Source: Thermoanaerobaculia bacterium (GTDB taxonomy: Bacteria; Acidobacteriota; Thermoanaerobaculia; Gp7-AA8). Taken from it: DNA of 64,000 nt. The notes under the pieces were generated by a model. That model was not told where the DNA came from and did no database searches. It worked only from the letters and a program-made list of their open reading frames with translations. A program made the position numbers and the translations under genes. The number at the start of each line of letters is the position of its first letter. Position 1 is the stretch's first letter. The stretch covers positions 5,257 to 69,256 of the forward strand of contig DATLXH010000128.1 of the NCBI GenBank assembly GCA_035576005.1, read 5' to 3'. Shown one piece after another: positions 3,168 through 54,385 of the stretch.

Positions 3168-3368
3168 ATGCCGAAGCGATCCCTGGAAGCGGATGCCCGC
3201 GCGGCACTTGAAGCGCGCAGAGCGGCACCGTTCGACGACGAGGAGTGGTCAGTGGCACGCGAGCGACTCTTGGAGTTCTTCGCGTTGCTTGGCCGCTGGG
3301 CCGACCGACATGCAAATGCCGAATCGATCGGCGACAATGCCTCGACGCCGGAGAGGAGATCGAATTGA
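3168..3368 (+). CDS. small hypothetical protein (67 aa) upstream of the recombinase; possible Xis/regulatory protein
   Basis: ATG at 3168. Its TGA overlaps the recombinase ATG (TGATG coupling). Basic and acidic helical composition. Confidence 0.3.
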   Translation: MPKRSLEADARAALEARRAAPFDDEEWSVARERLLEFFALLGRWADRHANAESIGDNASTPERRSN

Positions 3369-38789: not shown

Positions 38790-38809
38790 TTACTGCCACG
38801 GAGTGAGTG

Positions 38810-39204: not shown

Positions 39205-39370
39205 GAATCCCTCTCCCCGGCGGGGAGAGGGTGGTCGCGTCAGCGACCGGGAGAGGGGCCGCGAGAGATACGATGACCGCGCGTTTTAATGGAATCGCGA
39301 GACTCTCACGCCCCTCTCCCTGCTTCGCTTCGCTCGCTTCCCTCTCCCCGCCGGGGAGAGGGAACGCCGC
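39205..39370. repeat. composite REP-like element (family R)
   Basis: CCCTCTCCCCGGCGGGGAGAGGGTGGTCGCGTCAGCGACCGGGAGAGGGGCCGCGAGAGATACGA...CCCTCTCCCCGCCGGGGAGAGGGA. Confidence 0.6.
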
Positions 39371-39485: not shown

Positions 39486-40811
39486 ATGACGACGAGTCCC
39501 ACCACACAGCCCGGCGGTTATGGAGTCGAGCTCAACGACAACCCTCGGATGGGTGCAGCTCCGCTCGAGAAAGTCTACGCATTCTGGCTCGCCGGAATGA
39601 GCTGCGACGGCTGCTCCATCGCTGTTACGGGCGCCAGCGATCCGCCAGTCGAAGATCTACTGTTGGGAAGGATTCCCGGACTGCCGCGGGTGATCCTGTA
39701 TCACCCCGTTCTCTCCGCCGAAGCCGGCGACGAGTTCATCGCGAACTTTGATCTCGCCGCCGAGGGAAAGCTCGATGCCCCGTACGTCATCATTCTCGAG
39801 GGCTCGGCCACTGATGATTCGCTGCTCAAAGGCGATGGTTACTGGGTCGGACTGGGAGCGCGCGACGTTGGCGGAACTGACGGAAAAAAAGTCATCTCGG
39901 TCATGGAATGGATCGATCGACTGGCTCCCGGCGCTGCAGCCATGATTGCCATCGGCACCTGTGCGACCTGGGGCGGAATTCCGTCAGCAGTAGGGAACCC
40001 TACCGGTGCCATGGGTCTGATGGATTACCTGGGGAAGGACTATGTCAGCGCCTTCGGCCTGCCGGTCATCAACATTCCTGGTTGTGCTCCAGTCGGCGAC
40101 AACTTCACCGAAGTCGTGGCCATGGTTCTTCAATTCCTGCAGGGAACCGGGCCTCTTCCGGAGTTCGATCAGCTCGGCCGCCCGGCCTGGCAGTTTCGCG
40201 ATACCGTACACAACCGCTGCGTTCGGGGTGGCTATTACGAAGAAGGGATCTTCGCCAAGGAGTACGGCGATCCTGAGTGCCTCGTCGAGGTCGGATGCTG
40301 GGGCCCTGTCGTGCAATGCAACATCGTCGAGCGCGGTGCCATCCGCCATCACGGCGGCTGCATGAATCAGGGAGGCATCTGCATCGGCTGCACGATGCCC
40401 GGATTCCCCGACAAGTTCACACCCTTTTACACCGCACCACCGGGATCGTTCTTTTCAGCCGCGACAGCGACTACAACCGGCAAGATCGTGCGTTTCCTGC
40501 GCAGCTTTACGAAAAGCTCAGGCAACCGTTCCGTTCTATGGGACAAGCAGAATTCGATGCCGAGTGGATGGGCCATGCAGGCCCGTCCTGAGGGCTACCT
40601 CGAACAGTTCGTTCATCACTTCTATCGCAAACGCCAACTGTCGAGCTCCCTCGAGCCAGGACGAACGATTCCGGAGACACAGTTTCGTGATGGGTACGAG
40701 GTTCCCAGGATGGCCGAGCAGAAAGAGGTCGGCCACGGGGACATGCCCGTGATCTCAGGCCAGGAGCGACGACGAGCGAAGCTCGCGCGTGACGCTGCCG
40801 GGCTCCCGTAG
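39486..40811 (+). CDS. [NiFe]-hydrogenase small subunit, no Tat signal (group 1h/5-like, HhyS-type) with long C-terminal extension
   Basis: CxxC...GTCATWGG, CPV, and distal cluster Cys pattern (CxxGC...C). No RRxF twin-arginine motif at the N-terminus. Confidence 0.9.
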   Translation: MTTSPTTQPGGYGVELNDNPRMGAAPLEKVYAFWLAGMSCDGCSIAVTGASDPPVEDLLLGRIPGLPRVILYHPVLSAEAGDEFIANFDLAAEGKLDAPYVIILEGSATDDSLLKGDGYWVGLGARDVGGTDGKKVISVMEWIDRLAPGAAAMIAIGTCATWGGIPSAVGNPTGAMGLMDYLGKDYVSAFGLPVINIPGCAPVGDNFTEVVAMVLQFLQGTGPLPEFDQLGRPAWQFRDTVHNRCVRGGYYEEGIFAKEYGDPECLVEVGCWGPVVQCNIVERGAIRHHGGCMNQGGICIGCTMPGFPDKFTPFYTAPPGSFFSAATATTTGKIVRFLRSFTKSSGNRSVLWDKQNSMPSGWAMQARPEGYLEQFVHHFYRKRQLSSSLEPGRTIPETQFRDGYEVPRMAEQKEVGHGDMPVISGQERRRAKLARDAAGLP

Positions 40812-40944
40812 CAGGTATGCGACTCATGATGAACTCGACAGGGGAGCGACACTGTCGGACCGGTTTCCCCGCACTGACGAGAATCTCTTCATTCAAACAA
40901 ACGGCGTTCTCTCTGCCACACCTCAGCTCCGAAGGAGCAGCTAG

Positions 40945-42804
40945 ATGTGCTTCAAGAATCTTCCAATTGAATTCGATGCCGCCGGTCGCGCTTCGCTGAT
41001 CGGCGGCGCTAAAGATCCGTTCGCGTATCAGCGGAAAGACATTTCCCGCGACGAGATTCGCAAGCTAATGGAGCAGAACGGTTTCGTTAAATCCATGGAC
41101 TTCGATCCTGTCACGCGCATCGCGGGAGCCCTGGCCTTTCATACGACCGTCGATCTCAAGCAGCGAAAGGTCCTCGAGGCAGCATCCATGGCCACGTTGT
41201 TCCGCGGCTACGAGGTCATCCTCAAAGGTCGTGACCCTCGCGATGCAATCTTCATCAGCAGCAGAGCGTGCGGGGTCTGCGGCGGCGTGCATGCCACCTG
41301 CGCATCACTGGCGCTGGAGATGGCCTTCGGAATCAAGCCTCCCCCGCTCGGGATCGTCATCCGGAACCTGGCCCTGAGCATGGAGTTCGTCTGGGACAAC
41401 ATCATGCATCTCTTCATGCTGGCCGGGCCGGACTACTCCGAGGAGATCATCAAGCGCACCGACCGCTGGCTCTGGGATCGGGCCACTCAGACGTCCACGA
41501 AGTTCGAGCACATCCACGGCTACAAGAATGTGGGCGCGATGCTGACCGATCTCAATCCACTGAGCGGAAAGCTCTACCTCCATGGACTCGAATTGACGCG
41601 AGTCGCTCGTGAGGGCTACGTCACGTTGATGAGCAAGTATCCCCATCCTGAGACGATCGTTCCGGGAGGAGTGAGTCACAACGTTACGGTGCAGAGCTTC
41701 AACATCTTCCGCAACCGGCTCATGAAGATGTTCGACTTTGCCAAGACGGCCATCGGAATCTGGGAAGAGATCACGAACTTTTTCTATGAAGCGAACCCCG
41801 AGTACAAGAAGGTCGGTACCCGCCCTCTGAACTTCGCCGACACAGGAATCTGGGACGATCCCTTTGCTTACGACGGAACGTACGAGAATTGCGACGATTG
41901 GGGAGAGCGCCGCTGGGCCACTCCCGGGGTCATCATCGACGGAAAACAGGTCACCACGAAACTTCGCCAGATCAACCTCGGGATCGAAGAGTTCATCGAG
42001 CACTCTTTCTACGAGCCATGGACCGGTCACCCTCACAAGACCGATCCCTCAGGCTCGCCACTCAGCCCTAACCATCCGTGGAACAAGGAGACCAAACCGA
42101 AACCAGAAGGGACGAACTGGCGAGAAAAGTACAGCTGGTCCACCGCTCCTCGCTGGGACCGCGTCGCTGTCGAGACCGGTACCTTCATTCGCATGTGGAA
42201 CACCGTGCTGGCCGGAAAGCTCCCTCATCAACGCTTCCTCGAGCTAACCGAGAACAGCATGCGCATCACCATTCCGGCCTTTGAGAAACCGGAAATGATC
42301 GCTGAGTGGAAGATTCCGGATCAGTGGAATGCCTTCGAGCGCAACCTCAGTCGCGCTTACGCAGTGGCCTACAACGCAGCGGTCGCTTACGACAACTGGC
42401 TCATCGGGATGGATCTGCTCAAAAAGGGAGACTCTCGAGTTTCCACGCCGTTCGAGGTCCCGAAAACGAACCGGCTCGGTGTTGGTTTCTGGGGTGCAGG
42501 ACGAGGCTGGCTCACACATCACATCGAGATCGACAAAGGCGCGATCGTCAACTACCAGATCATCACACCGTCAACACTCATGGCCTCACCGATGGATCCG
42601 TGGGGTAGTCCCGGCCCTTACGAGGAAGCGGTCCTGGCCACCCCCATTCTCGAGCAGTTCGAGAAGCCGGAGGACTTCAAAGGAATCGACATCCTTCGCA
42701 CGATCCGCAGTTTCGATCCCTGTATGCCATGCACTACGCACATCTACGCGGGGGATCAGGTTGTCACCCAGGACGTAAATACGTGTGCGTGCGGAGTGGA
42801 GTGA
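40945..42804 (+). CDS. [NiFe]-hydrogenase large subunit
   Basis: GAAGGAG RBS. L1 motif RACGVCGGVH near the N-terminus and L2 motif DPCMPCTTH at the C-terminus. Confidence 0.9.
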   Translation: MCFKNLPIEFDAAGRASLIGGAKDPFAYQRKDISRDEIRKLMEQNGFVKSMDFDPVTRIAGALAFHTTVDLKQRKVLEAASMATLFRGYEVILKGRDPRDAIFISSRACGVCGGVHATCASLALEMAFGIKPPPLGIVIRNLALSMEFVWDNIMHLFMLAGPDYSEEIIKRTDRWLWDRATQTSTKFEHIHGYKNVGAMLTDLNPLSGKLYLHGLELTRVAREGYVTLMSKYPHPETIVPGGVSHNVTVQSFNIFRNRLMKMFDFAKTAIGIWEEITNFFYEANPEYKKVGTRPLNFADTGIWDDPFAYDGTYENCDDWGERRWATPGVIIDGKQVTTKLRQINLGIEEFIEHSFYEPWTGHPHKTDPSGSPLSPNHPWNKETKPKPEGTNWREKYSWSTAPRWDRVAVETGTFIRMWNTVLAGKLPHQRFLELTENSMRITIPAFEKPEMIAEWKIPDQWNAFERNLSRAYAVAYNAAVAYDNWLIGMDLLKKGDSRVSTPFEVPKTNRLGVGFWGAGRGWLTHHIEIDKGAIVNYQIITPSTLMASPMDPWGSPGPYEEAVLATPILEQFEKPEDFKGIDILRTIRSFDPCMPCTTHIYAGDQVVTQDVNTCACGVE

Positions 42805-42848
42805 TCGGAGCCCGGGATTTCCGCTCCTTCACCTGAGCTGGCAGAACC

Positions 42849-43430
42849 ATGCGAATTCTCATCGCCGGCGTCGGCTATTCGAACCTGAGCGACATGTCGC
42901 TCGGTCCGCTGCTCATTGAGATCCTAACTCAGCGCGCATGGCCTGAGGGCGTGGAGATTGACGACCTCAGTTATGGTCCGGTCTTCATTTGTCACAGCCT
43001 CGGCGAGCGCCCCGCATATGACCGGATCGTTCTGATCGGCGCCGTGTCGCGGGAAGAGGCTCCTGGAACCATCCGGCGCTTTCGCTGGGCCCATGAGCTC
43101 CCCTCCACTGACGAGATTCAGGCCCGTGTCGTGGAGGCTGCCACGGGCGTCACCAGTCTGGAGAATCTGCTGGTGGTCTCCACATACTTCAAGAGGCTTC
43201 CTGCTGATGTCGTGGTGCTCGAAATCGAACCTTTCGTCGATACGTTCGGCGCTGCGCTCAGCGACGATCTGAACGCTCTTCTGCCAGCGTTCATCGAGGA
43301 GTTGACGCGAGTCTGGTCCAGCCCCGACCCGCTCCCTTTGCTCGAGACCTATCGATTCATCATCGCCAATCCCGCGGACAGGCCGACGGGTTGGATCATC
43401 CGCGAAGCAGACTGGGGAGGATCGAATTGA
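42849..43430 (+). CDS. hydrogenase maturation protease-family protein (HyaD/HupD-like, divergent)
   Basis: MRILIAGVGYSNLSD...GP N-terminus of the family, but it lacks the canonical DDG motif. Confidence 0.65.
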   Translation: MRILIAGVGYSNLSDMSLGPLLIEILTQRAWPEGVEIDDLSYGPVFICHSLGERPAYDRIVLIGAVSREEAPGTIRRFRWAHELPSTDEIQARVVEAATGVTSLENLLVVSTYFKRLPADVVVLEIEPFVDTFGAALSDDLNALLPAFIEELTRVWSSPDPLPLLETYRFIIANPADRPTGWIIREADWGGSN

Positions 43431-43456
43431 GAGTTTTTTGGGAACTCTCCATCGTT

Positions 43457-43690
43457 CGCGTGCTCCCCTCTCCCCGGCGGAGATCGTCTCAAAAGGCCAA
43501 GATGAAAAGCCGAACGGAGAACGCAGAACGAAGAATGAAGAATTTAGAAAGAAAAAAGCGAAAAAAGACTGAAAAAACTCGGAATCCCCCGCTTTGTTTT
43601 CTTCATTCTTCATTCTTCATTCTGCGTTCTGCGTTCGGTTTCTCAAATCTTACTTTTGAGACGATCCCCGCGGGGAGAGGGGAAACCAAA
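43457..43690. mobile_element. AT-rich ~230-bp inverted-repeat element inserted into a REP-like 23-bp palindrome
   Basis: Arms AGATCGTCTCAAAAGGCCAAGATGAAAAGCCGAACGGAGAACGCAGAACGAAGAATGAAGAAT ... ATTCTTCATTCTGCGTTCTGCGTTCGG..CTTTTGAGACGATC. Flanks are CCCCTCTCCCCGGCGG | CCCGCGGGGAGAGGGG. Confidence 0.5.
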
Positions 43691-43740
43691 ACCACTGAGG
43701 CGACTTCCTGTTTCGCAGGAATCCGCCTAGGATCACAGCC

Positions 43741-44514
43741 ATGAAAATCGCAATTGCCGGAAAGGGTGGATCGGGTAAGACCACGATCGGCGGAACGCTG
43801 GCGCGACTGCTCGCGCGTGGCGGCCTGTCTGACGTACTGGCCATCGACGCAGACTCCAATCCAAATCTCGCGCTCACGCTCGGTCTTTCGAGAGAAGCAT
43901 CACAGCAGCTCCGCCCGTTGACGCGCGACATTCTCAAACGGGTGACCGGCGAAGATGGAGAGCAGAGAACGGTGCTCGCAAAGACCCCCGCAGCGGTTGT
44001 GGATGAATACGGAGTGCAGACGCCCGATGGAGTCATGCTCCTGCTCATGGGACGCGTCGAGCACGCCGGCGCCGGCTGAATGTGCGGAGCCCACGCTGCC
44101 GTGCGCAGCCTACTGACTGAAATGATCGCAGAGAACGACCGTCCGACAATCGTGGACATCGAAGCGGGTCTCGAGCATCTGAGCCGGGGAACTGCACGCA
44201 GCGTCGACACGATGCTGGTGATCTTCGAGCCGTACTTCAAATCGATGGAGACGGGCGCACGCATGACGGCGCTGGCTCGGGAGCTGGGAATCCCCCGGGT
44301 CCTTGGAGTTGCCAATAAAGTGACCCCGGCAGATGAGAAAGACCTTGCCGCCTTCTGTCTTTCCCGGGACATGGAGCTGGCGGCGACAATTCCCCGTGAC
44401 GAAGTGATGGCCACGGCTGATCGAAACGGCTCCGGGCCACTGGACGTGAGTAGCAGCAGCCCCGCCATCGACGCGATCGGAAAGCTCGCGGAGCGCTTGA
44501 AAGCTGATGGCTGA
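43741..44514 (+). CDS. cooC: CooC-family (MinD/ParA-type) nickel-insertion ATPase interrupted by an in-frame TGA at codon 113 (first Cys position of the CxC Ni-binding motif). Selenocysteine candidate or pseudogene; the track splits it into 43741..44079 and 44080..44514.
   Basis: Deviant Walker A KGGSGKTT. Downstream DIEAGLEHLSRGT is the CooC hallmark. The sequence reads ...EHAGAG-TGA-ATG-TGC..., i.e. G-[U/*]-M-C. The second half has no RBS of its own. Confidence 0.6.
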
Positions 44515-44517
44515 CGG

Positions 44518-44997
44518 ATGAGGACACTCGTTGCAGGCTTCGGAAACATTCTTCTCGGCGACGACGGGTTCGGCGTCGAGGTGGTCCGACGCCTCGAGCG
44601 CGAAGGGAAGCTCCCTGAGAACACTGAGCTCATCGATGTAGGAATCGGTGGTTTCGATTTCGTTCTCCGCCTCATGGACGGATACGACCGGGTGGTTGTC
44701 GTCGATGCCGTGCGCCGCCGTGAAAGGCCCGGCACCCTCCATGTTTTTCGCCCTGCTCCGACGGACGTCGTCCTCGAGACAGGAGAACGTCTCGACCCGC
44801 ACTTTGCGGAACCGGCGCGAGCGATGATCATGGCCCGTCAGATGTCGTGCCTTCCTGACGACGTCACCGTGGTCGGATGCGAAGTACTGAGTTGCGATCT
44901 GGGCGTCGGCCTCAGCGAGCCCGTGGAAGCTGCAGTCCGGGAAGCGATGGACAGGGTCAAGTCTCTGACCCGCATTTTTCACGGAGCTTTGTCGTGA
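44518..44997 (+). CDS. [NiFe]-hydrogenase maturation endopeptidase (HupD/HoxW/HycI family); 3' end fused into a MITE
   Basis: GNILLGDDGFG (GNxxxxDDGxG) motif. The last ~9 codons are encoded by MITE-A sequence from 44969. Confidence 0.75.
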   Translation: MRTLVAGFGNILLGDDGFGVEVVRRLEREGKLPENTELIDVGIGGFDFVLRLMDGYDRVVVVDAVRRRERPGTLHVFRPAPTDVVLETGERLDPHFAEPARAMIMARQMSCLPDDVTVVGCEVLSCDLGVGLSEPVEAAVREAMDRVKSLTRIFHGALS

Positions 44998-45146
44998 GAC
45001 GGCGGAGAGTGGCTTGGATGCGAGGCGCACGGCGATTTTGCGACGAAGGCATAGTCGACACTATGTCGAGGAGCGAAATTGGCGTGCAACGAAGCAGACA
45101 GGCCGCTATCCGTCGTATCACGGCGAAGGTCTGTGAGAAATGCGGG
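44969..45146. mobile_element. MITE family A copy inserted at the 3' end of the hydrogenase protease gene
   Basis: CCCGCATTTTTCACGGAGCTTTGTCGTGAGACGGCGGAGAGTGGCTTGG ... GAAGGTCTGTGAGAAATGCGGG, followed by TTAATAA. Confidence 0.65.
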
Positions 45147-45165
45147 TTAATAACGGAGCACGCCC

Positions 45166-45972
45166 ATGCAATTTGAAGAGCTCGAAGAATTGATGACCCG
45201 CCTCGAGTCCACCACTGACAACAGCGAGCGACAGCAGATCTACGGGATCGTCGGTCCAATTCTCGATTTTCATCGCCAGGCCTTCGCTCGCGTAGTGGAG
45301 ATTCTCGAGGAGGAAGGGGCACGCCACCTGCTGGACCGCATCGTGCGCGATCCGTTGCTGGAGAGCCTGCTGCGTGGTTACGAGCTCATAGAACTGGGAT
45401 TGGATCAGCGTGTTCTGGCAGCGCTGGAGATCGCCCGCCCGATGCTCAAGATGCACGGAGGAGATGTCTCGCTCGTAAAGATGCGAGGGAAGGTCGCCGA
45501 GCTCGAGCTCACTGGATCGTGCCAGGGCTGCGCGGCCTCCATGACCACTCTGCGCAACCTCATCGAGAAAAATCTCTACCAGCAGGTGCCGGAGCTCCGA
45601 GGAATCGAGGTGGCAGGTCTGACCGCGGCAGGCGCGAGCTCCCAGACCTGGCTTCCGCTCGTGCATCTGTACGAGGTGCGGGACGGGGAATGGCTCAAGG
45701 TTCAGCTCTTCGACGACCAGCTTCTGGTCTGCTCGATGGACGAACATCCTTTTGTATTCGAGAATCGTTGTCCCGCGGGAGGCGAGCCGCTCGACACAGC
45801 GGCTTTCGGGTACCTCTCCATCGGTTGCGTCGAGCACGGCCATCAGTTCGATCTTCGTACCGGCCTGAGCGCCGTCAATCCCGCGTTGCGCCTGCGGATC
45901 TACCCTGCCATCATCGATGATGCCGTCGTCAGGATCGCGTATGAGCCAAACAACGTTCCAGTTGCAGGATGA
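45166..45972 (+). CDS. NifU-like Fe-S assembly domain fused to a Rieske-like [2Fe-2S] domain (hydrogenase-associated)
   Basis: GGDVSLVKMRGKVAELELTGSCQGCAASMTTL (NifU C-terminal-type CxxC) and a C-terminal CPAGG...CVEHGH Rieske-like ligand pattern. Confidence 0.65.
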   Translation: MQFEELEELMTRLESTTDNSERQQIYGIVGPILDFHRQAFARVVEILEEEGARHLLDRIVRDPLLESLLRGYELIELGLDQRVLAALEIARPMLKMHGGDVSLVKMRGKVAELELTGSCQGCAASMTTLRNLIEKNLYQQVPELRGIEVAGLTAAGASSQTWLPLVHLYEVRDGEWLKVQLFDDQLLVCSMDEHPFVFENRCPAGGEPLDTAAFGYLSIGCVEHGHQFDLRTGLSAVNPALRLRIYPAIIDDAVVRIAYEPNNVPVAG

Positions 45973-46294
45973 CATCCTCCAGATGCTGTACTGGATGCGG
46001 GGCGAGCATCTGGGCGACGACGTGTCGAGCGAGCAGCTGAATCAGTTCCTGAAGGTTGACGAGCCACTGCTCGCCGCTTCGATCGAACGACTGGTCGATC
46101 GCAGTCTCCTCGAGAGAGTTGGAGATGCCAGACTACGGCTGACAGCCGTCGGCATCGAAGAGGGGAAGAAACGGTTCCTCGAAGAGTTCTCCACCTATCT
46201 CGGAAAGGAGTCGCACATCGCGTGCAGCGATCCCGAATGCGACTGCAGCAGCGCCGACTGGGTTGGAGCGTGCCGCTCGAGCACGTCGGTTTAG
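45941..46294 (+). CDS. small hydrogenase-associated protein with C-terminal Cys cluster (CSDPECDC...C)
   Basis: ATG overlapping the upstream stop (ATGA). Predicted helical N-terminus, and a Cys-rich tail. Confidence 0.45.
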   Translation: MSQTTFQLQDDILQMLYWMRGEHLGDDVSSEQLNQFLKVDEPLLAASIERLVDRSLLERVGDARLRLTAVGIEEGKKRFLEEFSTYLGKESHIACSDPECDCSSADWVGACRSSTSV

Positions 46295-46359
46295 CAGTCT
46301 AGACACATGGGAAGCTGAAGTTTGAAACCAGCAGGGCTGCAGGCCCGGGAATCGTCGTA

Positions 46360-46557
46360 GCCCCAGCCTTACGGGCTTGTTGCCTAACTTCACAGAGGAG
46401 CGTTCGTCATCCTGAGGAGCGCTTTTGCGACGAAGGATCTCAAAATGCGACGCTGTGAAAATCAATGAGTTACGTATTTTGAGATCCTTCGCTTTCGCTC
46501 AGGATGACGAATCGCTGGTGAGAGTGGAGTTAGGCAACACGCCCGTAAGGCTGGGGC
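46360..46557. mobile_element. ~200-bp lower-GC palindromic element (MITE-like) with ~85-bp arms
   Basis: GCCCCAGCCTTACGGGCTTGTTGCCTAACTTCAC...CGTCATCCTGAGGAGCGC...GAAGGATCTCAAAAT || ATTTTGAGATCCTTCGCTTTCGCTCAGGATGACGA...GTTAGGCAACACGCCCGTAAGGCTGGGGC. Confidence 0.5.
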
Positions 46558-46799
46558 GTTAGTTGACCTAGAGCACGGTGAGCCCCGCAAGGGGCGGCAT
46601 CGATGCCGCCGCTTCGCGGCTCCGTGGAATTCTCGTACAGTCACACCCCACCCTCACGGGTGGGGCTAAACGATATCGCCGCTTCGCGGCTGGGAGGACG
46701 CACCAGTTCATCACCTCTTCACCAGCCGTTCCCGGCTGTTCTCCCGCTACAGGGATGACACGCTCGCGGGTTGATAGAAGGGTTGTGAGAAAATGCCGC

Positions 46800-47648
46800 T
46801 TAACTCGACGGCGCGGCGAAGAGGGATGGATCGAGCGGCACGTTGAACTTGACGTCCTCATACCGGGTCTCGGACGTCTTCTTTCCAATCTTTCCCTTCG
46901 CATCGGCTTGGTATCCGGTGCGAAGCATCGGAAAGCGGATCCCGTCGATCACAGTTTCTTCGGAGTACTCCGTGTAGCTGTACTTACCCGCCTCGTACTC
47001 CAGGTGATTGGCTACCAGCCGACCGTCGCCGGCAAACATGTATGTCCAGGTGTGGAGTCCGCCCGCGTCGCCGGCTCCCTTGTCATAGGTCACGCGAACT
47101 TTGTCGACTTTGGTGCCATCGGCCAACGTCTCGCTGCCTGCGCTGGCGAGGTTCGCCCCACGATCGGTGAGCTTGAAGGGCATCGAAACGACATAGTGCG
47201 ATCCGAAGGTGGCATTCCTGGCGCCGTTCTTCTCGCTGACACCCGTTGCCACCACCCCATCCGCGACCCTCCATGCTTCCCATCCATGGTTGATCAGCAC
47301 GATCTTCCTGCCATCGTCTTCCCACGTGATCCGCATCTTCGGTCCTGGCCGCAGCACGTACTGATGGGTCTGCACCCGGGTGCTTTCCACGGTGCCATCC
47401 TCGCGGAACTTCGTCGTGGTCTTACGAAAAGATAGAGAGTGTTTTGAGCTCCACTCCTTCCATCCGCCGGCGTAGTCAATCCCACGCTGGACAACCTGTC
47501 CTGCTCCATCCTTCGAAAGACGCTCGATCGGGGAGGCCTCCGCCGGTTCACTGGCAGGAGGTTGGGAAACTGTTTCGACAGGGGCCTTCTGGCAGGCCGC
47601 CAGTACGAGAAGGAGCGCGGCTGCTGAGAGTCGTTTCATCGTCTTCAA
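46800..47648 (-). CDS. hypothetical lipoprotein (opposite strand, inside the hydrogenase cluster)
   Basis: Lipobox LLLVLAAC. Length 282 aa. Confidence 0.55.
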   Translation of the reverse strand: MKTMKRLSAAALLLVLAACQKAPVETVSQPPASEPAEASPIERLSKDGAGQVVQRGIDYAGGWKEWSSKHSLSFRKTTTKFREDGTVESTRVQTHQYVLRPGPKMRITWEDDGRKIVLINHGWEAWRVADGVVATGVSEKNGARNATFGSHYVVSMPFKLTDRGANLASAGSETLADGTKVDKVRVTYDKGAGDAGGLHTWTYMFAGDGRLVANHLEYEAGKYSYTEYSEETVIDGIRFPMLRTGYQADAKGKIGKKTSETRYEDVKFNVPLDPSLFAAPSS

Positions 47649-47753
47649 ATGATACCGTAAACCTCCCGGCCACCGACCTCAGCCGCTTCGAAAAGTCGAA
47701 GCTGAGTTGACATCAAGACCCCCTTCGGAAGAAATTGTGGCAGGAGAACATCA

Positions 47754-48041
47754 ATGGATAGCATGACTCTCTGGCAAATCTCCTGGGCAATCGGAGCATT
47801 GGTTGTCGTCATCGTTGCCGTGCTTCTCCTGCTCATCCTCGCAGCTGCCCGACGCATCGATAACCGGGCCAAAGAAATCTGGCAGGCGGGAAAGGAGATC
47901 GCTTCCAATACGGTCTCCATCTGGATGTTGCAGAAAACCAATGTCGTCGCCGGTGAGATCCTCGGTGTTGCGCAGGGGATTGCTGCCGGCGCCGGGGCAA
48001 TAGACGCCAAGCTGGCAGGCCTGGCCGGGAGCAAGAAGTAA
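47754..48041 (+). CDS. small single-pass membrane protein, paralog 1 of a tandem array of four
   Basis: N-terminal TM helix plus an amphipathic Ala/Ile/Gly-rich C-terminal region. Stop and start overlap the next paralog (TAATG). Confidence 0.5.
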   Translation: MDSMTLWQISWAIGALVVVIVAVLLLLILAAARRIDNRAKEIWQAGKEIASNTVSIWMLQKTNVVAGEILGVAQGIAAGAGAIDAKLAGLAGSKK

Positions 48042-48331
48042 TGCGACCGGTTCTGCTGGCCACCCTCATCTATCTCGGGATTCTGGTGGCCGTGCTCGCT
48101 GTGGGTCTGATCATGATCGCCTGGCGGCTATGGGCCACAGGCACGGCACTGGCCGCGATTCGCGACGAGCTGGCTTCCGTTAGGGACGACACTTCACCGC
48201 TGGCGTCCCACATCGGGGCGATCAATGGCGCGCTCTCGCAGTTAGGGGGCGGTCTGGCATCGGTACTGGCACGGCTCGGACGCGCCAACAGCGCGCTGGG
48301 CCGGATCATTGGGAAATCCAAGGTAGCCTGA
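48041..48331 (+). CDS. small single-pass membrane protein, paralog 2
   Basis: Same architecture. TSPLASHIGAINGALSQLGGGL aligns with TTPLTSAIPGVAGNLTSIGEGL of paralog 4. Confidence 0.5.
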   Translation: MRPVLLATLIYLGILVAVLAVGLIMIAWRLWATGTALAAIRDELASVRDDTSPLASHIGAINGALSQLGGGLASVLARLGRANSALGRIIGKSKVA

Positions 48332-48338
48332 GGACGAG

Positions 48339-48635
48339 ATGCCCCTATCCGTCCACATCATCTGGTGGATCACCCTGGCCCTGGCGCTGGGGATCACGGT
48401 CCTTGCCACGGCGTACCTCATTCTCGTCGTTCGGGAGTGTGGACAGATTATGGAACTTGCACGACGAACCATTCCATCGGCACAGCTGATTGCCCGAAAC
48501 ACGAAGGCCATCGCCAGTCTCACGGCGGTCCTCGACCTTGCACCGACACTGCTCAAAGTAGCGGGGAACATCGACCGCGAGTCGGAGACGATTGCTTCCA
48601 CCATCGAATCCGTCGCGCCACGAGCGTCCGCATGA
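48339..48635 (+). CDS. small single-pass membrane protein, paralog 3
   Basis: Same architecture. ATGA overlap with paralog 4. Confidence 0.5.
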   Translation: MPLSVHIIWWITLALALGITVLATAYLILVVRECGQIMELARRTIPSAQLIARNTKAIASLTAVLDLAPTLLKVAGNIDRESETIASTIESVAPRASA

Positions 48636-48925
48636 TTCTCTGGACCGTTCTCAGCTGCGTCCTTTTTCTAACGCTCCTGGCGTTCCTTACCTGGGCGCTC
48701 AACAAAATCCTTCATGCCCTTCAGGCCATCCGCAGCAGCCTCGAGAAAATTGCCATGGGCGTCAAAGCCATCAGCGTCGAGACCACGCCACTCACCAGCG
48801 CGATTCCGGGAGTAGCCGGCAACCTCACCAGCATTGGAGAAGGCCTGGTGATCGTCGAGAAACATCTCACTGGCAGCGCCGCCAGTCTTCCGGGTGCTGC
48901 TCGTGCACTCGGGCTCCTTCCGTGA
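48632..48925 (+). CDS. small single-pass membrane protein, paralog 4
   Basis: Same architecture. Its stop overlaps the hypF GTG start. Confidence 0.5.
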   Translation: MILWTVLSCVLFLTLLAFLTWALNKILHALQAIRSSLEKIAMGVKAISVETTPLTSAIPGVAGNLTSIGEGLVIVEKHLTGSAASLPGAARALGLLP

Positions 48926-51315
48926 CCTCGGGCGGCCACGCTCTCGTCGCCGAACAGACTTCGGCAAGGAGCGGCCTGCGTGTCCGCGGAGTCGTGCAGG
49001 GAGTCGGTTTCCGTCCTTTTGTCTACCGGCTGGCGCGCCAGTATGGGATGTCCGGATTCGTTCGCAACGATTCGGGGGGCGTCTGGATAGAAATCGAAGG
49101 CAGGCACGCGATACTCGCCGAGTTTCCTGATCTGCTCCGTCGCCAGGCTCCCGCGGCCGCTGTCATTCAAGCGATCGAAAGCTTTCCACTTCCCCTGAAG
49201 TTCGACGGCAATTTTTCGGTCATTGAGAGTGCAGCCACGCCCGGGAATCGCGCTCGCATTCCCTGCGATCTCGCTACCTGCAGCTACTGCCTCCAGGAGC
49301 TCTTCGACCCGATGAATCGACGGTATCTCTACCCCTTCATTAACTGCACTGCCTGCGGTCCCCGCTTTTCGATTGTTCGCGATACGCCGTACGACCGAGC
49401 TCGGACGACCATGGACGCCTTTTCCCTATGCGCTGCCTGCCTGGATGAATACCAGAGCCCGGCTGATCGTCGATTCCATGCGGAACCAAACGCCTGCGCC
49501 GTTTGCGGTCCCAGGCTTCAGTTCGTTTCTTCCAGGCCGGAAGAAAATACGCCGCTCTCCGACTCAACAAACAGGGAAGCGCTTGCGCGCGCCGTTGCCT
49601 TGCTCCAGAAGGGCTTGATCGTGGCCATCAAAGGTCTGGGAGGGTTTCATCTCGCCGTTGACGCCACCAACGACGTTGCTGTGCGGAGACTCCGCGATCG
49701 TAAGCAAAGACCTCACAAACCATTCGCCGTGATGGCGCGCGACGCAATCATGGCCTCTACGATCGCTGAGGTTGGTGAAAGTGAAGCCAGGCTACTGACG
49801 TCCGTGCAACGTCCGATCGTCCTGCTCCCAGCGAGAAAGTCGGCTCTTCCGAACTCCATAGCGCCGGCCAGCGACGAGATCGGAGTCATGCTTCCCTACA
49901 CGCCGCTTCATCATCTGTTGCTCGATGCCCTGCCGCTTCTGGTCATGACCAGCGGAAATCGTGCAGATGAGCCGATCGTCATCGACAACGACGTAGCGAT
50001 CGAGCAGCTCTCCGGAATCGCCGACGCCTTCCTCCTGCATGATCGAGAGATTCATGCACGAGTGGACGATTCCGTCACTCGGGTCGCGAACGGGACTCGC
50101 AGAATGCTTCGACGCTCCCGTGGGTTTGTGCCCGATCCGATCGAGCTTCAGCTTCCGGTTCGCCACGCAGCCGAGAGGCAGGGGCAACCATTCCCTTCCG
50201 ACAACGAGGACAACGTACCTTCAGCAGGCCCGACCCCTTCGATTCTGGCGGTGGGCGCGGAGCTCAAAAACACGCTATGCATCACGCGTGGCAGCGAGGC
50301 TTTCCTGTCCCAGCACATCGGAGACCTGGAGTCGCCGGAGTCTCTCGAGTTCTTCAAGGAAACCACCACCCGCCTTTCCCGCCTTCTATCCGTGACGCCC
50401 GCCGTCGTCGCCCACGACCTTCATCCCGATTACGCATCGACACGATGGGCACTGGCCAGCGGACTGCGACGAATCCCGGTGCAGCATCATCACGCTCACA
50501 TCGCCTCCTGTCTGGCTGAGAATGGGAGGAGCGAGCGCGTGATCGGCGTGGCCTTCGATGGCACCGGCTGCGGTCCGGCGGGCGAGTTATGGGGCGGGGA
50601 GTTCCTTCTCGCTGACGCCAGAAATTCAGAGCGGGTCGGCCACCTCCGCCCCCTAGGACTGATTGGCGGAACGGCCGCGATTCGAGAGCCGTGGCGCCTC
50701 GCAGTCGCAGCACTCGATGATGCCGGGGAGGAAACGGACATCCTGAGAGACATCGATCCGTACCGACGTGAAATGGTGTTGTCCATGAGCCGTAAAGGAA
50801 TTCGAACTGTCCGATCGACGAGCGCTGGCCGCTGGTTCGACGCCGTTGCCGCTCTTTGCGCAGTGCGTGAAGAGATTACCTACGAAGCGCAGGCAGCGAT
50901 CGAGCTCGAGGCACTTGCGTCACGTGATGACGTCGAGCCATACAGTTTCACGCTCACAGAAGATGCAGTCTTCGAGGTCGACCTCCGTCCTGCCATTCGC
51001 GAAATCGTCGGCGACCTCCGGGCGGGACTCGCTACAGCCATCATCTCGTCGCGTTTTCATCAGACTATGGCGAGCTTGATTTCCGCTGGGGCAGTCGCTG
51101 CGCGCAGCAGAGGAGGTCCGGCCATCATCGCGCTCTCTGGAGGCTGCTTTCAAAATCGGCTTCTCAGTGAACGGGCACGGACGCTTCTCGAAAGAGACGG
51201 CTTCGAGGTTCTCCAGCATCGCCACGTTCCCGCCAACGATGGCGGGATTGCACTCGGTCAGGCGTTCGTGGCGGCGCACTTGCTGGCTTCCGAGACAGGG
51301 TACGATGCGAGTTAG
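48922..51315 (+). CDS. hypF: [NiFe]-hydrogenase maturation carbamoyltransferase HypF
   Basis: Acylphosphatase domain (VRGVVQGVGFRPFVYRLA), two CxxC-x18-CxxC zinc fingers, and YrdC-like and Kae1/YgjD-like C-terminal domains. Confidence 0.9.
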   Translation: MTSGGHALVAEQTSARSGLRVRGVVQGVGFRPFVYRLARQYGMSGFVRNDSGGVWIEIEGRHAILAEFPDLLRRQAPAAAVIQAIESFPLPLKFDGNFSVIESAATPGNRARIPCDLATCSYCLQELFDPMNRRYLYPFINCTACGPRFSIVRDTPYDRARTTMDAFSLCAACLDEYQSPADRRFHAEPNACAVCGPRLQFVSSRPEENTPLSDSTNREALARAVALLQKGLIVAIKGLGGFHLAVDATNDVAVRRLRDRKQRPHKPFAVMARDAIMASTIAEVGESEARLLTSVQRPIVLLPARKSALPNSIAPASDEIGVMLPYTPLHHLLLDALPLLVMTSGNRADEPIVIDNDVAIEQLSGIADAFLLHDREIHARVDDSVTRVANGTRRMLRRSRGFVPDPIELQLPVRHAAERQGQPFPSDNEDNVPSAGPTPSILAVGAELKNTLCITRGSEAFLSQHIGDLESPESLEFFKETTTRLSRLLSVTPAVVAHDLHPDYASTRWALASGLRRIPVQHHHAHIASCLAENGRSERVIGVAFDGTGCGPAGELWGGEFLLADARNSERVGHLRPLGLIGGTAAIREPWRLAVAALDDAGEETDILRDIDPYRREMVLSMSRKGIRTVRSTSAGRWFDAVAALCAVREEITYEAQAAIELEALASRDDVEPYSFTLTEDAVFEVDLRPAIREIVGDLRAGLATAIISSRFHQTMASLISAGAVAARSRGGPAIIALSGGCFQNRLLSERARTLLERDGFEVLQHRHVPANDGGIALGQAFVAAHLLASETGYDAS

Positions 51316-51332
51316 CGGGCTAGGGGGAAACC

Positions 51333-51623
51333 ATGTGTCTCGGTATACCAGGTGAGATTCTCGAGTTACGAGTCGAGAAAGGATTGCCATTCGGCAAAGT
51401 GAAGTTCGGCGGCATCACCCGGTCCGTCTGCCTGGCCTACGTGCCTGAGGCCTCCGTAGGCGAGTTCGTGGTCGTTCACGTCGGCTTTGCCATCTCCATC
51501 ATCGACGCCGAGGAGGCAGCGCAGGCATACAAAATCCTCGAAGAGATCGGTCAGATCGGAGAGCTCACCGCGGACCTTCCACCCGACATCCTCGCCAACC
51601 TTCCTTCCAGCAAAGTCCAATGA
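51333..51623 (+). CDS. hypC: hydrogenase assembly chaperone HypC/HupF
   Basis: N-terminal MCLGIPGEI signature. Confidence 0.9.
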
Positions 51624-52726
51624 AATACCTCGACGAATACCGCGATAGTGCGGTGGCTGCCGCCCTGGTCCGTGAGATCAAAACCGTGGCCACGCGCCCG
51701 TGGGTACTCATGGAAGTCTGCGGCGGACAGACGCATTCGATCGTCCGCTACGGCATCGATCGCATGCTTCCCACCTCGGTCGAGCTCGTTCACGGACCAG
51801 GCTGTCCCGTCTGCGTCACGTCCCTCGAGACAATCGATCGCGCTCATGCAATCGCCAGCCGTCCCGACGTCATTTTCACGTCCTTCGGCGACATGCTCCG
51901 AGTTCCCGGATCGCGTGGTGATCTGCTGGCGCTCAAGAGTCGTGGAGCTGACGTCCGCGTGGTCTACTCTCCGCTGGACGCCGTCCGAATTGCGCGCGAC
52001 AACCCTACCCGGCAGGTCGTGTTCTTCGGCATTGGATTCGAAACCACGGCGCCAGCAAATGCCATGGCGGTTTTCAGCGCCAAGAAGGAAGGGCTGAAGA
52101 ATTTCTCGATGCTCGTTTCTCACGTGCTGGTGCCACCGGCCATGGCATCGATCCTCCAGGCTCCGGGCAATCGCGTGGAAGGCTTCCTCGGGCCCGGTCA
52201 TGTCTGCTCGATCATGGGGACCAGAGAGTACGAGTCGTTGTCGGCCCGGTTCAAAGTACCGATCGTGATCACTGGTTTCGAGCCGATCGATCTGCTCGAG
52301 GGCATCCTCATGACGGTAAGACAGCTGGAAAGTGGACAGGCAACCGTCGAGAATCAGTACGCGCGCGCAGTGAGTGCGGAAGGGAATCTCCCCGCACAAA
52401 AAATCCTGTTTGAGGTCTTCGAGATCACCGATAGAAAGTGGCGCGGTGTCGGCTCCATCCCCAAGTCCGGATACAAGCTCCGCTACGAATACCGGGAGCA
52501 CGACGCTGCGAAACTTTTCGAGGTCGAGGATATCGAGACGGCCGAGCCGGAGGTCTGCATCAGCGGACTCATTCTTCGCGGCCTCAAAAAGCCGCACGAC
52601 TGTCCGGCCTTCGGGAAAGAGTGCCGGCCCGAGCATCCCATCGGAGCGACGATGGTTTCGGCTGAAGGCTCCTGCGCCGCCTACCTCCAGTATGGACGGT
52701 ATCCAGAAGCACACGAGTCGGTATGA
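51620..52726 (+). CDS. hypD: hydrogenase maturation factor HypD
   Basis: [13 protein letters not shown] and FEPID-type conserved motifs. ATGA overlap with hypC. Confidence 0.9.
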
Positions 52727-53331
52727 CTGGTACCCATGAGCGCGTCGACCTTCGTGATGCCATCCTTCGGAAAGCAGGAGAAAGCGCGGAGCTGAAGACA
52801 CGGTTCTTCGAGGAGAACGCGGATCTTCTCATCCGTTGCGTGGAACGGCTCGCCGAATCGTTTCGCTCCGGAGGTCGGCTGCTTGTCATGGGCAACGGAG
52901 GATCGGCTTGTGACGCGCAGCATGTGGCCATCGAGTTTCAGCATCCCATCATCGAGAAGCGCAAACCGCTGCCTGCCATGGCCCTCACTGTCGACACCGC
53001 CGCACTCACCGCCATCGGAAATGACGGCGACTTCGCGCGCGTGTTCGTCGAACAACTGGACATGCTGGGCCGCACCGGCGATGCAATTCTCGGGATCTCT
53101 TCCTCAGGTGCATCGGCAAACGTGAATCGTGCGTTGAAGCGAGGACGCGAGATGGGTCTCGTCACCATCGGCTTCTCGGGACGGGACGGCGGCCGGATGC
53201 CCGAGCTATGCGACTTCTGTTTCACTGTCCCCAGCTGGTCGATCCACCGCATCCAGGAAGTGCACACGACGCTGCTGCATCTTCTGTGGGACCTTGTCCA
53301 CGTCTCTATGGGAGAGGACGATGTCCTCTGA
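52723..53331 (+). CDS. SIS-domain protein (GmhA-like sugar-phosphate isomerase fold) embedded in the hyp operon
   Basis: [15 protein letters not shown] and [16 protein letters not shown] motifs. Coupled by overlap to hypD and hypE. Confidence 0.8.
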
Positions 53332-54385
53332 TTCCGGTAGCTCCACTCCCTTCTCCGACTGTCCACTCCCTTTCCGCGACACGTCCCAGATCCTGCTCGG
53401 ACACGGAAGCGGCGGGAAGCTCACCGGAGAACTGATCGAGAAGCTTCTGTTGCCAGCATTCAACAATGACGTTCTGTCTCAGCTCGACGATCAGGCGATT
53501 CTAACCATCGGCGACTCACGCATCGCCTTCACGACCGACAGCTATGTCGTCACCCCGATCTTTTTCCGGGGCGGCGACATCGGCTCACTGGCGGTGAACG
53601 GCACAATCAATGACCTGGCCATGGGTGGGGCGGTGCCAAAGTTCCTCTCTCTCGCGCTGATTCTCGAAGAAGGTCTTGCCATGGGGGATCTCGAGCGCGT
53701 CGTGGCCTCAATACGCGATGCTTCGCGAGCTGCCGGTGTGGCGATTGTTACGGGCGACACGAAAGTCGTGGGACGCGGCAGCGGTGACAAAATCTTCATC
53801 AATACCGCCGGGATCGGCATCGTCCCCGAGGGCGTTACTCTTTCGTCGAAGCAGGTCAGGCCGGGTGATGACATCCTGCTCTCCGGTCCGATCGGCGATC
53901 ACGGAATTGCGATCCTTTCTCAACGCGAAGGGCTCGAGTTCGACGGAGAGATTGCAAGCGACACTGCTCCGCTTCACACGCTCGTGGCCGCTATGCTCAA
54001 AGCGTCGTCGTCGATCCATGCGATGCGTGATCCCACACGCGGCGGTCTGGCAGCGACACTCGTGGAGATCGCGACACGGCAACACCTCGGCATGGAAATC
54101 GACGAACCATCCATCCCTGTGCGAGAAGTCGTCCGCGGTGCGTGCGAGATTCTCGGACTCGACCCGATGTTCGTGGCGAACGAAGGGAAGCTCGTCGCCT
54201 TCGTACCACCGGAGAGCACCGATGACGTCCTGCGCGCCATGCGCGAACATCCTCTGGGTAGAGACGCCGTGCGGATCGGTGGCGTTATCAAAGATTCGTC
54301 CGGGCGCGTTCGCCTCCGCACCCCGATTGGTGGCTATCGGCTACTCGACCTTCCCTTTGGGGAGCTTCTCCCACGAATCTGCTGA
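53321..54385 (+). CDS. hypE: hydrogenase maturation factor HypE
   Basis: PurM-like fold and the C-terminal PRIC motif. Confidence 0.9.
   Translation: MSSDSGSSTPFSDCPLPFRDTSQILLGHGSGGKLTGELIEKLLLPAFNNDVLSQLDDQAILTIGDSRIAFTTDSYVVTPIFFRGGDIGSLAVNGTINDLAMGGAVPKFLSLALILEEGLAMGDLERVVASIRDASRAAGVAIVTGDTKVVGRGSGDKIFINTAGIGIVPEGVTLSSKQVRPGDDILLSGPIGDHGIAILSQREGLEFDGEIASDTAPLHTLVAAMLKASSSIHAMRDPTRGGLAATLVEIATRQHLGMEIDEPSIPVREVVRGACEILGLDPMFVANEGKLVAFVPPESTDDVLRAMREHPLGRDAVRIGGVIKDSSGRVRLRTPIGGYRLLDLPFGELLPRIC

Follow-up and report, generated by a model that had tools for sequence, protein, structure and literature searches.

The locus described here raises two connected questions, namely to which class its [NiFe]-hydrogenase belongs and how this enzyme could receive its nickel when neither hypA nor hypB lies near it. 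It occupies positions 39486-54385 of a 64,000-nt stretch of DNA from Thermoanaerobaculia bacterium (assembly GCA_035576005.1, contig DATLXH010000128.1, positions 5,257-69,256 of the forward strand), which we refer to as the window. An earlier note on this DNA had described a group 1h/5-like hydrogenase without a twin-arginine translocation (Tat) signal and with unusual accessory content, and had suggested that a CooC-like ATPase substitutes for HypB. Our analysis points to group 1l (Hyl-type), an air-tolerant class of uptake hydrogenases, in a rearranged form, encoded by a self-contained, operon-like cluster whose gene order departs from the type 1l arrangement and whose host belongs to the Acidobacteriota, and we put the probability of this reading, taken together with the operation and maturation proposed below, at roughly 75%. 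The hydrogenase would add one more member to a class that is known but was defined only recently; the gene order is a variant, and the maturation genes include a CooC-type ATPase gene with an in-frame TGA.

HylS, the small subunit, has no pair of arginines (RR) among its first 80 residues, and its reading frame is closed by an in-frame stop 23 codons upstream of the ATG, which excludes a cryptic Tat signal. The Tat-less nature of the protein is thus confirmed, and the outcome that the earlier note had named as speaking against its assignment, membership in group 1a-1f with a cryptic Tat signal further upstream, does not apply. The C-terminal extension, previously put at ~100 aa, amounts to ~85 residues past the C-terminus of the C. 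necator 1h protein (441 versus 351 aa). According to an alignment, it is also present in two loci that were found through the genomic contexts of ATPase homologs with a cysteine codon in place of the TGA, one from soil (L016) and one from the Chthoniobacterales (L017). The proximal-cluster motif is SCDGCS, with four cysteines, in the window and in L015 (a haloarchaeal locus), L016, and L017, whereas two 1h small subunits have CDGDS. In the large subunit, HylL, the expected ligand motifs are present as L1 RACGVCGGVH and L2 DPCMPCTTH, the latter followed by a 20-residue tail.

These features agree with the published description of group 1l. Ortiz et al. (bioRxiv 10.1101/2020.08.06.239558) defined this group (Hyl) as a sister lineage to 1h with less than 40% identity, and their Supplementary Note 1 lists a small-subunit C-terminal extension of ~100 aa, a proximal cluster with four cysteines (an Asp is found in 1h), five single-pass membrane proteins, HylTM1-5, commonly but not universally encoded between hylS and hylL, of which HylTM4 has a tri-Cys tail, and a Rieske-type HylE together with HupD. 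The window agrees in the ~40% identity to 1h, the Tat-less and extended small subunit, the all-Cys proximal cluster, the single-pass membrane proteins of ~90-100 aa, the NifU/Rieske-type HylE, HupD, and the CbiA-type and SIS neighbors. The small-subunit tail, the tandem membrane paralogs, and the Rieske protein, which had been regarded as unusual, are therefore published hallmarks of group 1l. In L016 and L017, the small-subunit gene, five single-pass open reading frames (ORFs) of 87-110 aa, and the large-subunit gene follow each other in exactly the published 1l order, and the large subunits are 57-59% identical to that of the window over the full length. The L1/L2 signature RACGVCGG[VA]H / DPCM[PSA]C[TA][TV]H is common to all family members examined, whose identity to 1h is 38-43%. 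Large subunits from different branches of this deep family share 46-62% identity. Group 1l was defined in 2020/2021 and was biochemically still called "uncharacterized" in 2026 (PMC13554262).

A canonical group 1h/5 (Hhy-type) high-affinity hydrogenase with lineage-specific accessory genes appears quite improbable to us, although, among solved structures, both subunits match the group 1h enzyme 5AA5 far better than any other (5AA5_C, 462 bits with the large subunit; 5AA5_A, 367 bits with the small subunit). The next solved matches, periplasmic group 1 enzymes, reach only ~170 bits (large) and ~145 bits (small), which places the enzyme on the 1h side of the family. The 1h/5 systems of C. necator (HofKG, 5AA5) and M. 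smegmatis (Hhy) are also cytoplasm-facing and Tat-less, and 1h loci share the NifU-type HhyE/HylE gene, the GmhA-like SIS gene, and adjacent hypCDEF and endopeptidase genes. The label "group 1h/5-like" is hence justified as far as the missing Tat signal and the nearest solved structure are concerned, but not in other respects. The large subunit is 39.6% identical to that of C. necator 1h and 40-43% identical to Streptomyces/Mycobacterium 1h comparators from a tblastn search of plasmids, which returned 1h and more distant enzymes only, whereas canonical 1h enzymes of different phyla share ~76% identity (PMC5900883). The 1h signatures, L1 TSRICGICGDNH and L2 SFDPCLPCGVH (in short RICGICGDNH and DPCLPCGVH), are not matched by the window, which has SSRACGVCGGVH and SFDPCMPCTTH. 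The 1h enzymes have an Asp at the proximal cluster and neither the small-subunit tail nor HylTM genes, and the 1h-specific DUF5947, DUF6084, and ~476-aa proteins had no tblastn match in the window or in L001-L013 when the C. necator proteins were used as queries. Furthermore, hypA, hypB, and hoxN, which are present in the 1h locus, are not found next to the window hydrogenase. In the accessible part of Table S7 of Ortiz et al., a contig with a close relative of the large subunit is labeled "Group 1h", but the same contig carries a true canonical 1h enzyme, which may explain this label. Another contig, from MGR_bin6 (L010), a metagenome-assembled genome (MAG) of that study, is missing from the 1h entries in the same part of the table, and as, according to the paper, all group 1 sequences of the study are 1h or 1l, this indirectly supports group 1l. 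A further candidate class, group 2a (Huc), was rejected, as it scored 104 bits versus 462 bits for 1h.

A scan of genome contigs with the large subunit yielded 13 related loci, for which up to 10 kb on either side of the matched gene were examined. The large subunits are 77-85% identical in Thermoanaerobaculia and other Acidobacteriota MAGs, 79% in Ca. Entotheonella, and 58% in Solirubrobacterales and an actinomycete MAG; the nearest relatives are Thermoanaerobaculia MAGs. An identical large subunit was also found on a 4.3-kb contig assembled from run SRR7741809. The locus itself comprises 18 genes, 17 on the plus and one on the minus strand, with the features given below; Pfam scans covered a non-overlapping set of window ORFs of at least 70 aa plus the locus genes.

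39486..40811, plus strand: HylS, [NiFe]-hydrogenase small subunit, 441 aa; Pfam PF01058 (Oxidored_q6) and PF14720 (NiFe_hyd_SSU_C)
40945..42804, plus strand: HylL, [NiFe]-hydrogenase large subunit, 619 aa; PF00374
42849..43430, plus strand: catalytically dead HybD/HupD-like protein (pseudo-endopeptidase); TIGR00072, 52 bits versus a cutoff of 47.45
43741..44514, plus strand: CooC-type P-loop ATPase, 257 aa with the TGA read through; CooC1 3KJE, Pfam CbiA
44077..44079, plus strand: in-frame TGA of the ATPase gene, most likely read as selenocysteine; recurrence and alignment with Cys
44095..44109, plus strand: SECIS-like hairpin GCUGC-CGUGC-GCAGC, beginning 15 nt past the UGA; covariation
44518..44997, plus strand: HupD/HybD-type maturation endopeptidase with intact metal site; PF01750 71 bits, TIGR00072 129 bits
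45166..45972, plus strand: HylE, fusion of NifU-like and Rieske-fold domains; PF01106 and PF00355
45941..46294, plus strand: winged-helix protein with Cys tail, 117 aa; ORF 45917-46294, start likely at 45941
46800..47648, minus strand: lipoprotein with lipobox LAAC; ORF and signal sequence
47754..48041, plus strand: HylTM homolog 1, single N-terminal transmembrane (TM) helix; KD19 maximum 3.37
48041..48331, plus strand: HylTM homolog 2; KD19 maximum 2.88
48339..48635, plus strand: HylTM homolog 3; KD19 maximum 2.55
48632..48925, plus strand: HylTM homolog 4; KD19 maximum 2.54, weak DUF948 match
48922..51315, plus strand: HypF carbamoyltransferase; five HypF Pfam domains
51333..51623, plus strand: HypC chaperone; PF01455, 82 bits
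51620..52726, plus strand: HypD; PF01924, 505 bits
52723..53331, plus strand: GmhA-like SIS-domain protein; PF13580
53321..54385, plus strand: HypE, C-terminal end PRIC; AIRS and AIRS_C

HypF most likely starts with the GTG at 48922, which overlaps the stop of HylTM homolog 4, and HypE most likely with the ATG at 53321, based on the start codon and a Shine-Dalgarno sequence. All genes and motifs that the earlier note had listed are present, including the protease homolog without a DDG motif, the CooC-like ATPase with its TGA, the canonical endopeptidase, the NifU-Rieske fusion, the small Cys-tailed protein, the opposite-strand lipoprotein, the four tandem membrane paralogs, and the hypF-hypC-hypD-SIS-hypE order. 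In the 13 loci of the scan, the dead protease, ATPase, HupD, HylE, Cys-tail protein, HylTM, hypFCD-SIS-hypE, and lipoprotein genes recur in largely the same order, and L001-L009 keep the succession protA, CooC, protB (the protease-type genes flanking the ATPase gene), HylE, Cys-tail protein, HylTM, and hypFCD-SIS-E. The dead protease, HupD, the Cys-tail protein, and the ATPase are also encoded in L016, L017, and 11 metagenome loci with the same large-subunit type. Most of the "unusual accessory content" is therefore the family content of 1l-type loci and not an oddity of one genome.

The four tandem membrane paralogs (47754-48925) are single-pass proteins of ~96 aa, each with an N-terminal TM helix, and could be identified as HylTM homologs by comparison with the ORFs interposed between the subunit genes of L016 and L017. 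Homologs 1, 2, and 3 each match one interposed ORF best, namely the second (46-49% identity in L016 and L017), the fifth (29-37% in L016/L017), and the fourth (34% in L016), respectively. Homolog 2 is also 30% identical to homolog 4, which in turn shows ~32% identity to the third and fifth interposed ORFs of L017, with a better score for the fifth, so that either could be its ortholog. One interposed ORF of L016 ends with CPGCPAC, as described for HylTM4; among the four proteins of the window, there is neither a tri-Cys tail nor an ortholog of the first interposed ORF. The missing Tat signal and the positive-inside distribution around the helices suggest that the enzyme faces the cytoplasm and that the HylTM proteins have their soluble portions on this side as well.

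The ATPase encoded downstream of the dead protease has CooC1 of C. hydrogenoformans (3KJE), the ATP-dependent nickel insertase of Ni,Fe-carbon monoxide dehydrogenase (CODH), as its best PDB match (E = 1.3e-35; residues 1-230 of 257 aligned with 1-228 of 254). Both share the MinD-type P-loop fold, the GKGGxGKT deviant Walker A motif (GKGGSGKT in the window), and the position of the CxC nickel site, as U113-M-C115 of the motif HAGAG-U-M-C-GA-H aligns with Cys112-Tyr-Cys114, U113 with Cys112 and C115 with Cys114. Among 12 homologs, G112, C/U113, C115, H118, and R122 are invariant. A metagenome scan with the family alignment separated the hydrogenase-linked motif HAGxG-[C/U]-x-C-x-x-H-A-x-V-R from the G-C-x-C-P-x-N of classical CooC. 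In contrast to CooC, the window ATPase is linked to a hydrogenase, with no Ni,Fe-CODH among the Pfam-scanned window ORFs, and about half of the sampled subfamily members would carry selenocysteine. Genes of the subfamily lie next to hydrogenase genes of this type in Acidobacteriota, Verrucomicrobiota, Ca. Entotheonella, an actinomycete MAG, and a haloarchaeon. Further cases are a contig from a soil metagenome without taxonomic assignment and 11 additional metagenome loci in which the same large subunit is encoded. As the protein matches CbiA/MinD/CooC and not HypB, whose CobW/UreG-type GTPase domain gave no match, it could be a functional analog of HypB but not a homolog. NCBIfam matches were of the generic MinD/ParA type only. 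The legend of Figure S5 of Ortiz et al. names "CbiA", "SIS", and "PadR" among the neighborhood genes, so that the ATPase had been seen before, apparently without discussion.

Some loci have more than one such gene or a second hydrogenase. In L011, there are four ATPase copies, at 499-1242 (plus), 2549 (minus), 3313 (minus), and 4861-4106 (minus), with CxC, CMG, CMCC, or no Cys motif, and on L037, a 2.8-kb metagenome contig, a selenocysteine copy and a cysteine copy lie side by side (729 and 2377). In the actinobacterial loci L011 (6322-7977) and L010 (531-2249), another hydrogenase of this family is encoded in tandem with the first; the last residue of its large subunit (RACGVCGGAH) is the His of DPCM[SA]CATH, and as there is no C-terminal tail, endopeptidase processing would not be needed. 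The haloarchaeal hydrogenase of the same type (L015, Natrinema salifodinae, GCA_900110455.1, 2304-5794) has a 50% identical large subunit and a small subunit with CDGC; the locus also encodes a Cys-form ATPase, a Cys-tail protein, HupD, and hypCDEF, and instead of TM proteins, a single acidic 98-aa ORF without a TM helix lies between the subunit genes.

The in-frame TGA is not peculiar to the window. The hydrogenase-linked subfamily had TGA in 23 loci and TGT or TGC in 20 at the same codon, and among the related genome loci, TGA was present at this codon in all eight that hold the ATPase gene, with TGT in the actinobacterial homolog. The 23 TGA loci share as little as ~50% protein identity, yet both halves are conserved and in frame, and near-identical contexts occur with either codon, e.g., AHPQHAGTG*LCGMH and AHPQHAGTGCLCGMH. 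An additional feature is a hairpin resembling a selenocysteine insertion sequence (SECIS), with a 5-bp stem and a G-containing pentaloop (CGUGC/GGUCC). In an RNAalifold analysis of 22 distinct selenocysteine forms, four of the five pairs showed compensatory changes, which include synonymous third positions of an Arg codon, varying in step with the first base of a variable codon. Pairing was found in 91.8% of the alignment cells, compared to 77.6% in shuffled alignments (0 of 500 reached the observed value) and 14-50% when the pairing partner was slid. All five pairs in the same register were present in 19 of 22 selenocysteine forms and in none of 20 cysteine forms (Mann-Whitney p = 3e-7). This limitation to TGA forms links the hairpin with the UGA codon, which is what a bacterial SECIS would be expected to show. 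The signal is comparative only, as single-sequence folding past the TGA gave a window hairpin that was no more stable than shuffled sequences (z = 0). Taken together, the recurrence of the TGA, its alignment with cysteine, and the covarying hairpin confined to TGA forms indicate that the codon most likely encodes selenocysteine.

We regard it as very improbable that the TGA is a real stop, be it in a pseudogene or in a gene that yields two separate polypeptides. The next codon in the window is ATG, gene callers split the gene at this position, and no selenocysteine machinery is visible in the window, all of which would fit a stop. However, the codon after the TGA is ATG, CTG, CTT, CTC, GCT, GCG, or AAC in the different loci, and as GCT, GCG, and AAC are not start codons, reinitiation cannot be general, which argues against a split gene. 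Conservation of both halves in frame across the 23 loci, the aligned Cys in 20 homologs, and the hairpin found solely in TGA forms are likewise difficult to reconcile with a stop.

A selenocysteine-containing protein of this type seems to be new. In a 2026 review of prokaryotic selenoprotein families, a keyword search found no CooC, CbiA, MinD, ParA, P-loop, or NTPase, and "ATPase" occurs there only for a cation-transporting ATPase. A keyword search of the literature likewise returned nothing relevant on selenocysteine-containing CooC/MinD-type proteins or on CooC-dependent hydrogenase maturation. A window-wide scan for other TGA-split ORFs with a coding-like G+C content of third codon positions on both sides gave none that was convincing by its flanking translations. 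A family of YHS selenoproteins exists, and the YHS-domain ORF at 38352-38789 was considered as a second candidate but rejected, since its stop codon is TAG and its score lies well under the cutoff.

With regard to nickel delivery, neither HypA nor HypB had a match in the 64-kb window, either in tblastn with C. necator and E. coli queries or in the Pfam scans, in agreement with the earlier note, and the Pfam scans of the window ORFs also revealed no HypB/CobW, nickel permease, or Sel genes. Tblastn likewise found no HypA or HypB in 96 other loci (L001-L013 and L015-L097); the remaining L014 is the 1h comparator and the source of queries. This C. necator 1h locus carries hypA-hypB and hoxN. The proposal that the ATPase handles nickel is based on its homology to the nickel insertase CooC1, on the strict linkage of its gene to hydrogenase genes of this type in several bacterial phyla and in a haloarchaeon, and on the lack of hypA/hypB in the window and the 96 loci, whereas the 1h comparator keeps hypAB adjacent. 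The suggested replacement of HypB by the CooC-like ATPase has thus gained from the conserved linkage and from the absence of hypA/hypB in the related loci, but what the window and these loci provide is support and not proof. Tentatively, and at somewhat less than even odds, we propose that group 1l enzymes are matured by a HypA/HypB-independent system with a dedicated CooC-type ATPase, probably together with the Cys-tail protein, whose nickel site contains selenocysteine in many lineages. The published descriptions of group 1l that we examined contain no discussion of nickel insertion or of the absence of HypA/HypB.

That an ATPase of the MinD superfamily can assume the part of HypB in supplying a [NiFe]-hydrogenase with nickel has a precedent in Tk-mmHypB of the Thermococcales, a Mrp/MinD-type, non-GTPase replacement of HypB. 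It works with HypA, which was not found in the window, and to our knowledge, neither a CxC site nor selenocysteine is known for it. Tk-mmHypB was not among the significant PDB sequence matches of the window ATPase.

It is also conceivable, though we consider it rather unlikely, that HypA and HypB encoded elsewhere insert the nickel and that the ATPase and the Cys-tail protein serve in iron-sulfur (FeS) cluster delivery, in regulation, or in the maturation of another nickel enzyme. The searches covered the 64-kb window and, in the relatives, flanks of no more than 10 kb to the left and right of the matched gene. Delivery of FeS clusters is another known function of MinD/Mrp-type ATPases, and the MarR/DtxR-like DNA-binding fold of the Cys-tail protein would suit a regulator. 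On the other hand, the nearest characterized homolog of the ATPase is the nickel insertase CooC1, and the CxC nickel site is invariant. Its GCxCxxH motif, which differs from the CODH-linked GCxCPxN, tracks the hydrogenase type, and not a single hydrogenase-linked locus contained hypA/hypB, which 1h loci keep adjacent.

The Cys-tail protein, encoded directly behind HylE, had no Pfam or NCBIfam match. A word-indexed search yielded 11 close homologs and thus a shallow alignment for structure modeling, in which AlphaFold2 confidently predicted a winged helix-turn-helix for residues 1-86; the tail was not part of the model. The best Foldseek matches were DNA-binding domains of MarR/DtxR/MntR, at the weak level of E ~1e-3 and a TM score of ~0.5. 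In the tail, H-x2-C-x4-C-x-C-x8-C, the residues H92, C95, C100, C102, and C111 are invariant. The gene adjoins the ATPase gene in L005, L008, L009, L011, and L016 and shares a short contig with it in L022, L026, L030, L032, and L046. The protein could be a Ni-sensing regulator or a HypA-like chaperone partner of the ATPase.

The two protease homologs differ in their metal sites, as seen in alignments with HybD (1CFZ). The first has lost all three ligands, with M in place of E16, G in place of D62, and R in place of H93, whereas the second, a HycI-family endopeptidase, retains the equivalents of D16, D62, and H93. The dead protease is encoded directly downstream of the large subunit in L001-L009, L011, L016, and L017 and is also found in the 11 metagenome loci, with a weaker match of 30% identity in L015; it is likely a large-subunit chaperone. 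HylE was compared with its orthologs and 1h HhyE. It keeps the NifU CxxC, but the ligand set of its Rieske fold is incomplete (C-P-A-G ... C-V-E-H), as the His of the first motif is gone, and in an acidobacterial sub-clade (L005 12902-13732, L006 6475-7272, L009 12972-13724), HylE also lacks the NifU CxxC and the first Rieske ligand pair, which makes cluster binding by these orthologs doubtful. HhyE and HucE, the 1h and 2a counterparts of HylE, are needed for H2 oxidation in M. smegmatis (PMC6883350). The SIS protein is 50% identical to the SIS gene product of the C. necator 1h locus and stays below the gmhA cutoffs in NCBIfam; a SIS gene is also standard in 1h loci (PMC5900883). No Pfam, NCBIfam, or PDB match was obtained for the lipoprotein, which has homologs in L001, L005, L009, and L017 (52-55% identity) and L039 (37%).

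From these components, the following operation can be proposed. As there is no Tat signal, the enzyme is predicted to face the cytoplasm, where HylL/HylS would oxidize H2, presumably with high affinity, and pass the electrons through the three FeS clusters of HylS, with ligands of the proximal cluster that are all cysteines. The small-subunit extension and the four HylTM proteins may tether the enzyme to the membrane, where the electrons would reach the quinone pool, possibly via HylE. This is modeled on published 1l AlphaFold structures, in which the small-subunit tail and HylTM helices tether the dimer and the distal cluster is near the quinone pool (PMC13554262). By analogy to established Hyp biochemistry, HypC, HypD, HypE, and HypF would build the Fe(CN)2CO moiety. 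Nickel would then be inserted by a dimer of the CooC-type ATPase instead of HypA/HypB, using a (Sec/Cys)2(Cys)2 interface site (Sec, selenocysteine) with the nearby invariant His, and the winged-helix/Cys-tail protein may assist in this step. During maturation, the ligand-less protease paralog probably serves as a chaperone for the large subunit before its processing, and the intact endopeptidase is expected to remove the 20-residue HylL tail after His599, following nickel insertion.

Several points weigh against this overall reading. The 1l placement was made by published features and by loci with the hallmark order rather than by a tree, with the type sequence, HylL of H. roseosalivarius, outside the comparison, and the "Group 1h" label in Table S7 has been mentioned above. 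The window has four HylTM genes instead of five, without the tri-Cys-tail protein, and they lie downstream of the accessory genes and not between hylS and hylL. The incomplete Rieske ligands of HylE and the loss of the NifU CxxC in the sub-clade make its role as an electron carrier uncertain. No selA, selB, selD, or tRNA-Sec was found in the 64-kb window, hypA/hypB could be present elsewhere in the genome, and no experiment ties any CooC-type protein to hydrogenase maturation. The points on placement and HylTM genes, together with the depth of the family, could also mean that the enzyme represents an unnamed lineage that is sister to 1h and 1l and shares only architectural features with 1l, which we nevertheless consider improbable. 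HylTM genes are found downstream in the window and L001, but four of them lie immediately upstream of the small-subunit gene in L005, L006, L008, and L009, and the exact published 1l order is realized in L016/L017 with their 57-59% identical large subunits. All published 1l features that could be tested were found, and L010 stems from the very study that defined 1l and sorted its group 1 sequences into 1h or 1l, with L010 missing from the 1h entries of the accessible table part. We therefore keep the assignment to group 1l, from whose published form the window differs in the number and position of the HylTM genes, in the lack of a tri-Cys tail, and in the selenocysteine predicted for its ATPase.

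The surroundings of the locus show some further features. Long imperfect palindromes fill intergenic gaps at window positions 39208-39363, 43473-43675, 44968-45147, and 46360-46557, with arms of 24-83 nt that are 78-100% complementary, and several of them contain CCCTCTCCCCGGCGGGGAGAGGG. The 310-bp gap between the dead protease and ATPase genes is not present in L001/L002, where both genes nearly abut, and the palindromic element therefore looks inserted, resembling repetitive extragenic palindromic (REP) sequences or miniature inverted-repeat transposable elements (MITEs). Directly 5' of the hydrogenase (38044-39160), a small membrane or secreted protein, a YHS-domain protein, and a divergent HxlR-type regulator are encoded, with no apparent connection to the hydrogenase. 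At 3245-4996 (plus), the ORF of a large serine recombinase (Resolvase, Recombinase, and Zn ribbon) extends into a tRNA-Gln gene of the other strand (4862-4936, minus) and is followed by a DUF559 endonuclease-like gene; this region may be the edge of an integrated element.

In Antarctic desert soils, group 1l hydrogenases have been reported to be more abundant than any others, and they also occur widely in the ocean and in soils elsewhere; a criterion of the group is the aerobic oxidation of H2, possibly at atmospheric levels. There is no purified member, and the route by which these enzymes acquire nickel has no published description. In the literature that we reached, there is no description of a maturation set like the present one, which combines a selenocysteine CooC-type ATPase, a Cys-tailed winged-helix protein, and a dead protease with the lack of HypA/HypB nearby. 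As standard gene callers split the ATPase gene in many MAGs, annotation pipelines under-report this protein. Heterologous expression of 1l hydrogenases may fail without the ATPase and without selenium or a Cys variant. The alternation of selenocysteine and cysteine in the nickel site is a natural experiment on the part of selenium in metal handling. If our interpretation is true, the ATPase would be the first selenoprotein metallochaperone, as far as we could find, and would represent an undescribed selenoprotein family of aerobic soil bacteria. The locus and its relatives thus offer a testable parts list that has, instead of HypA/HypB, the CooC-type ATPase, the Cys-tailed winged-helix protein, and the dead protease paralog, which makes nickel insertion in group 1l enzymes directly testable.

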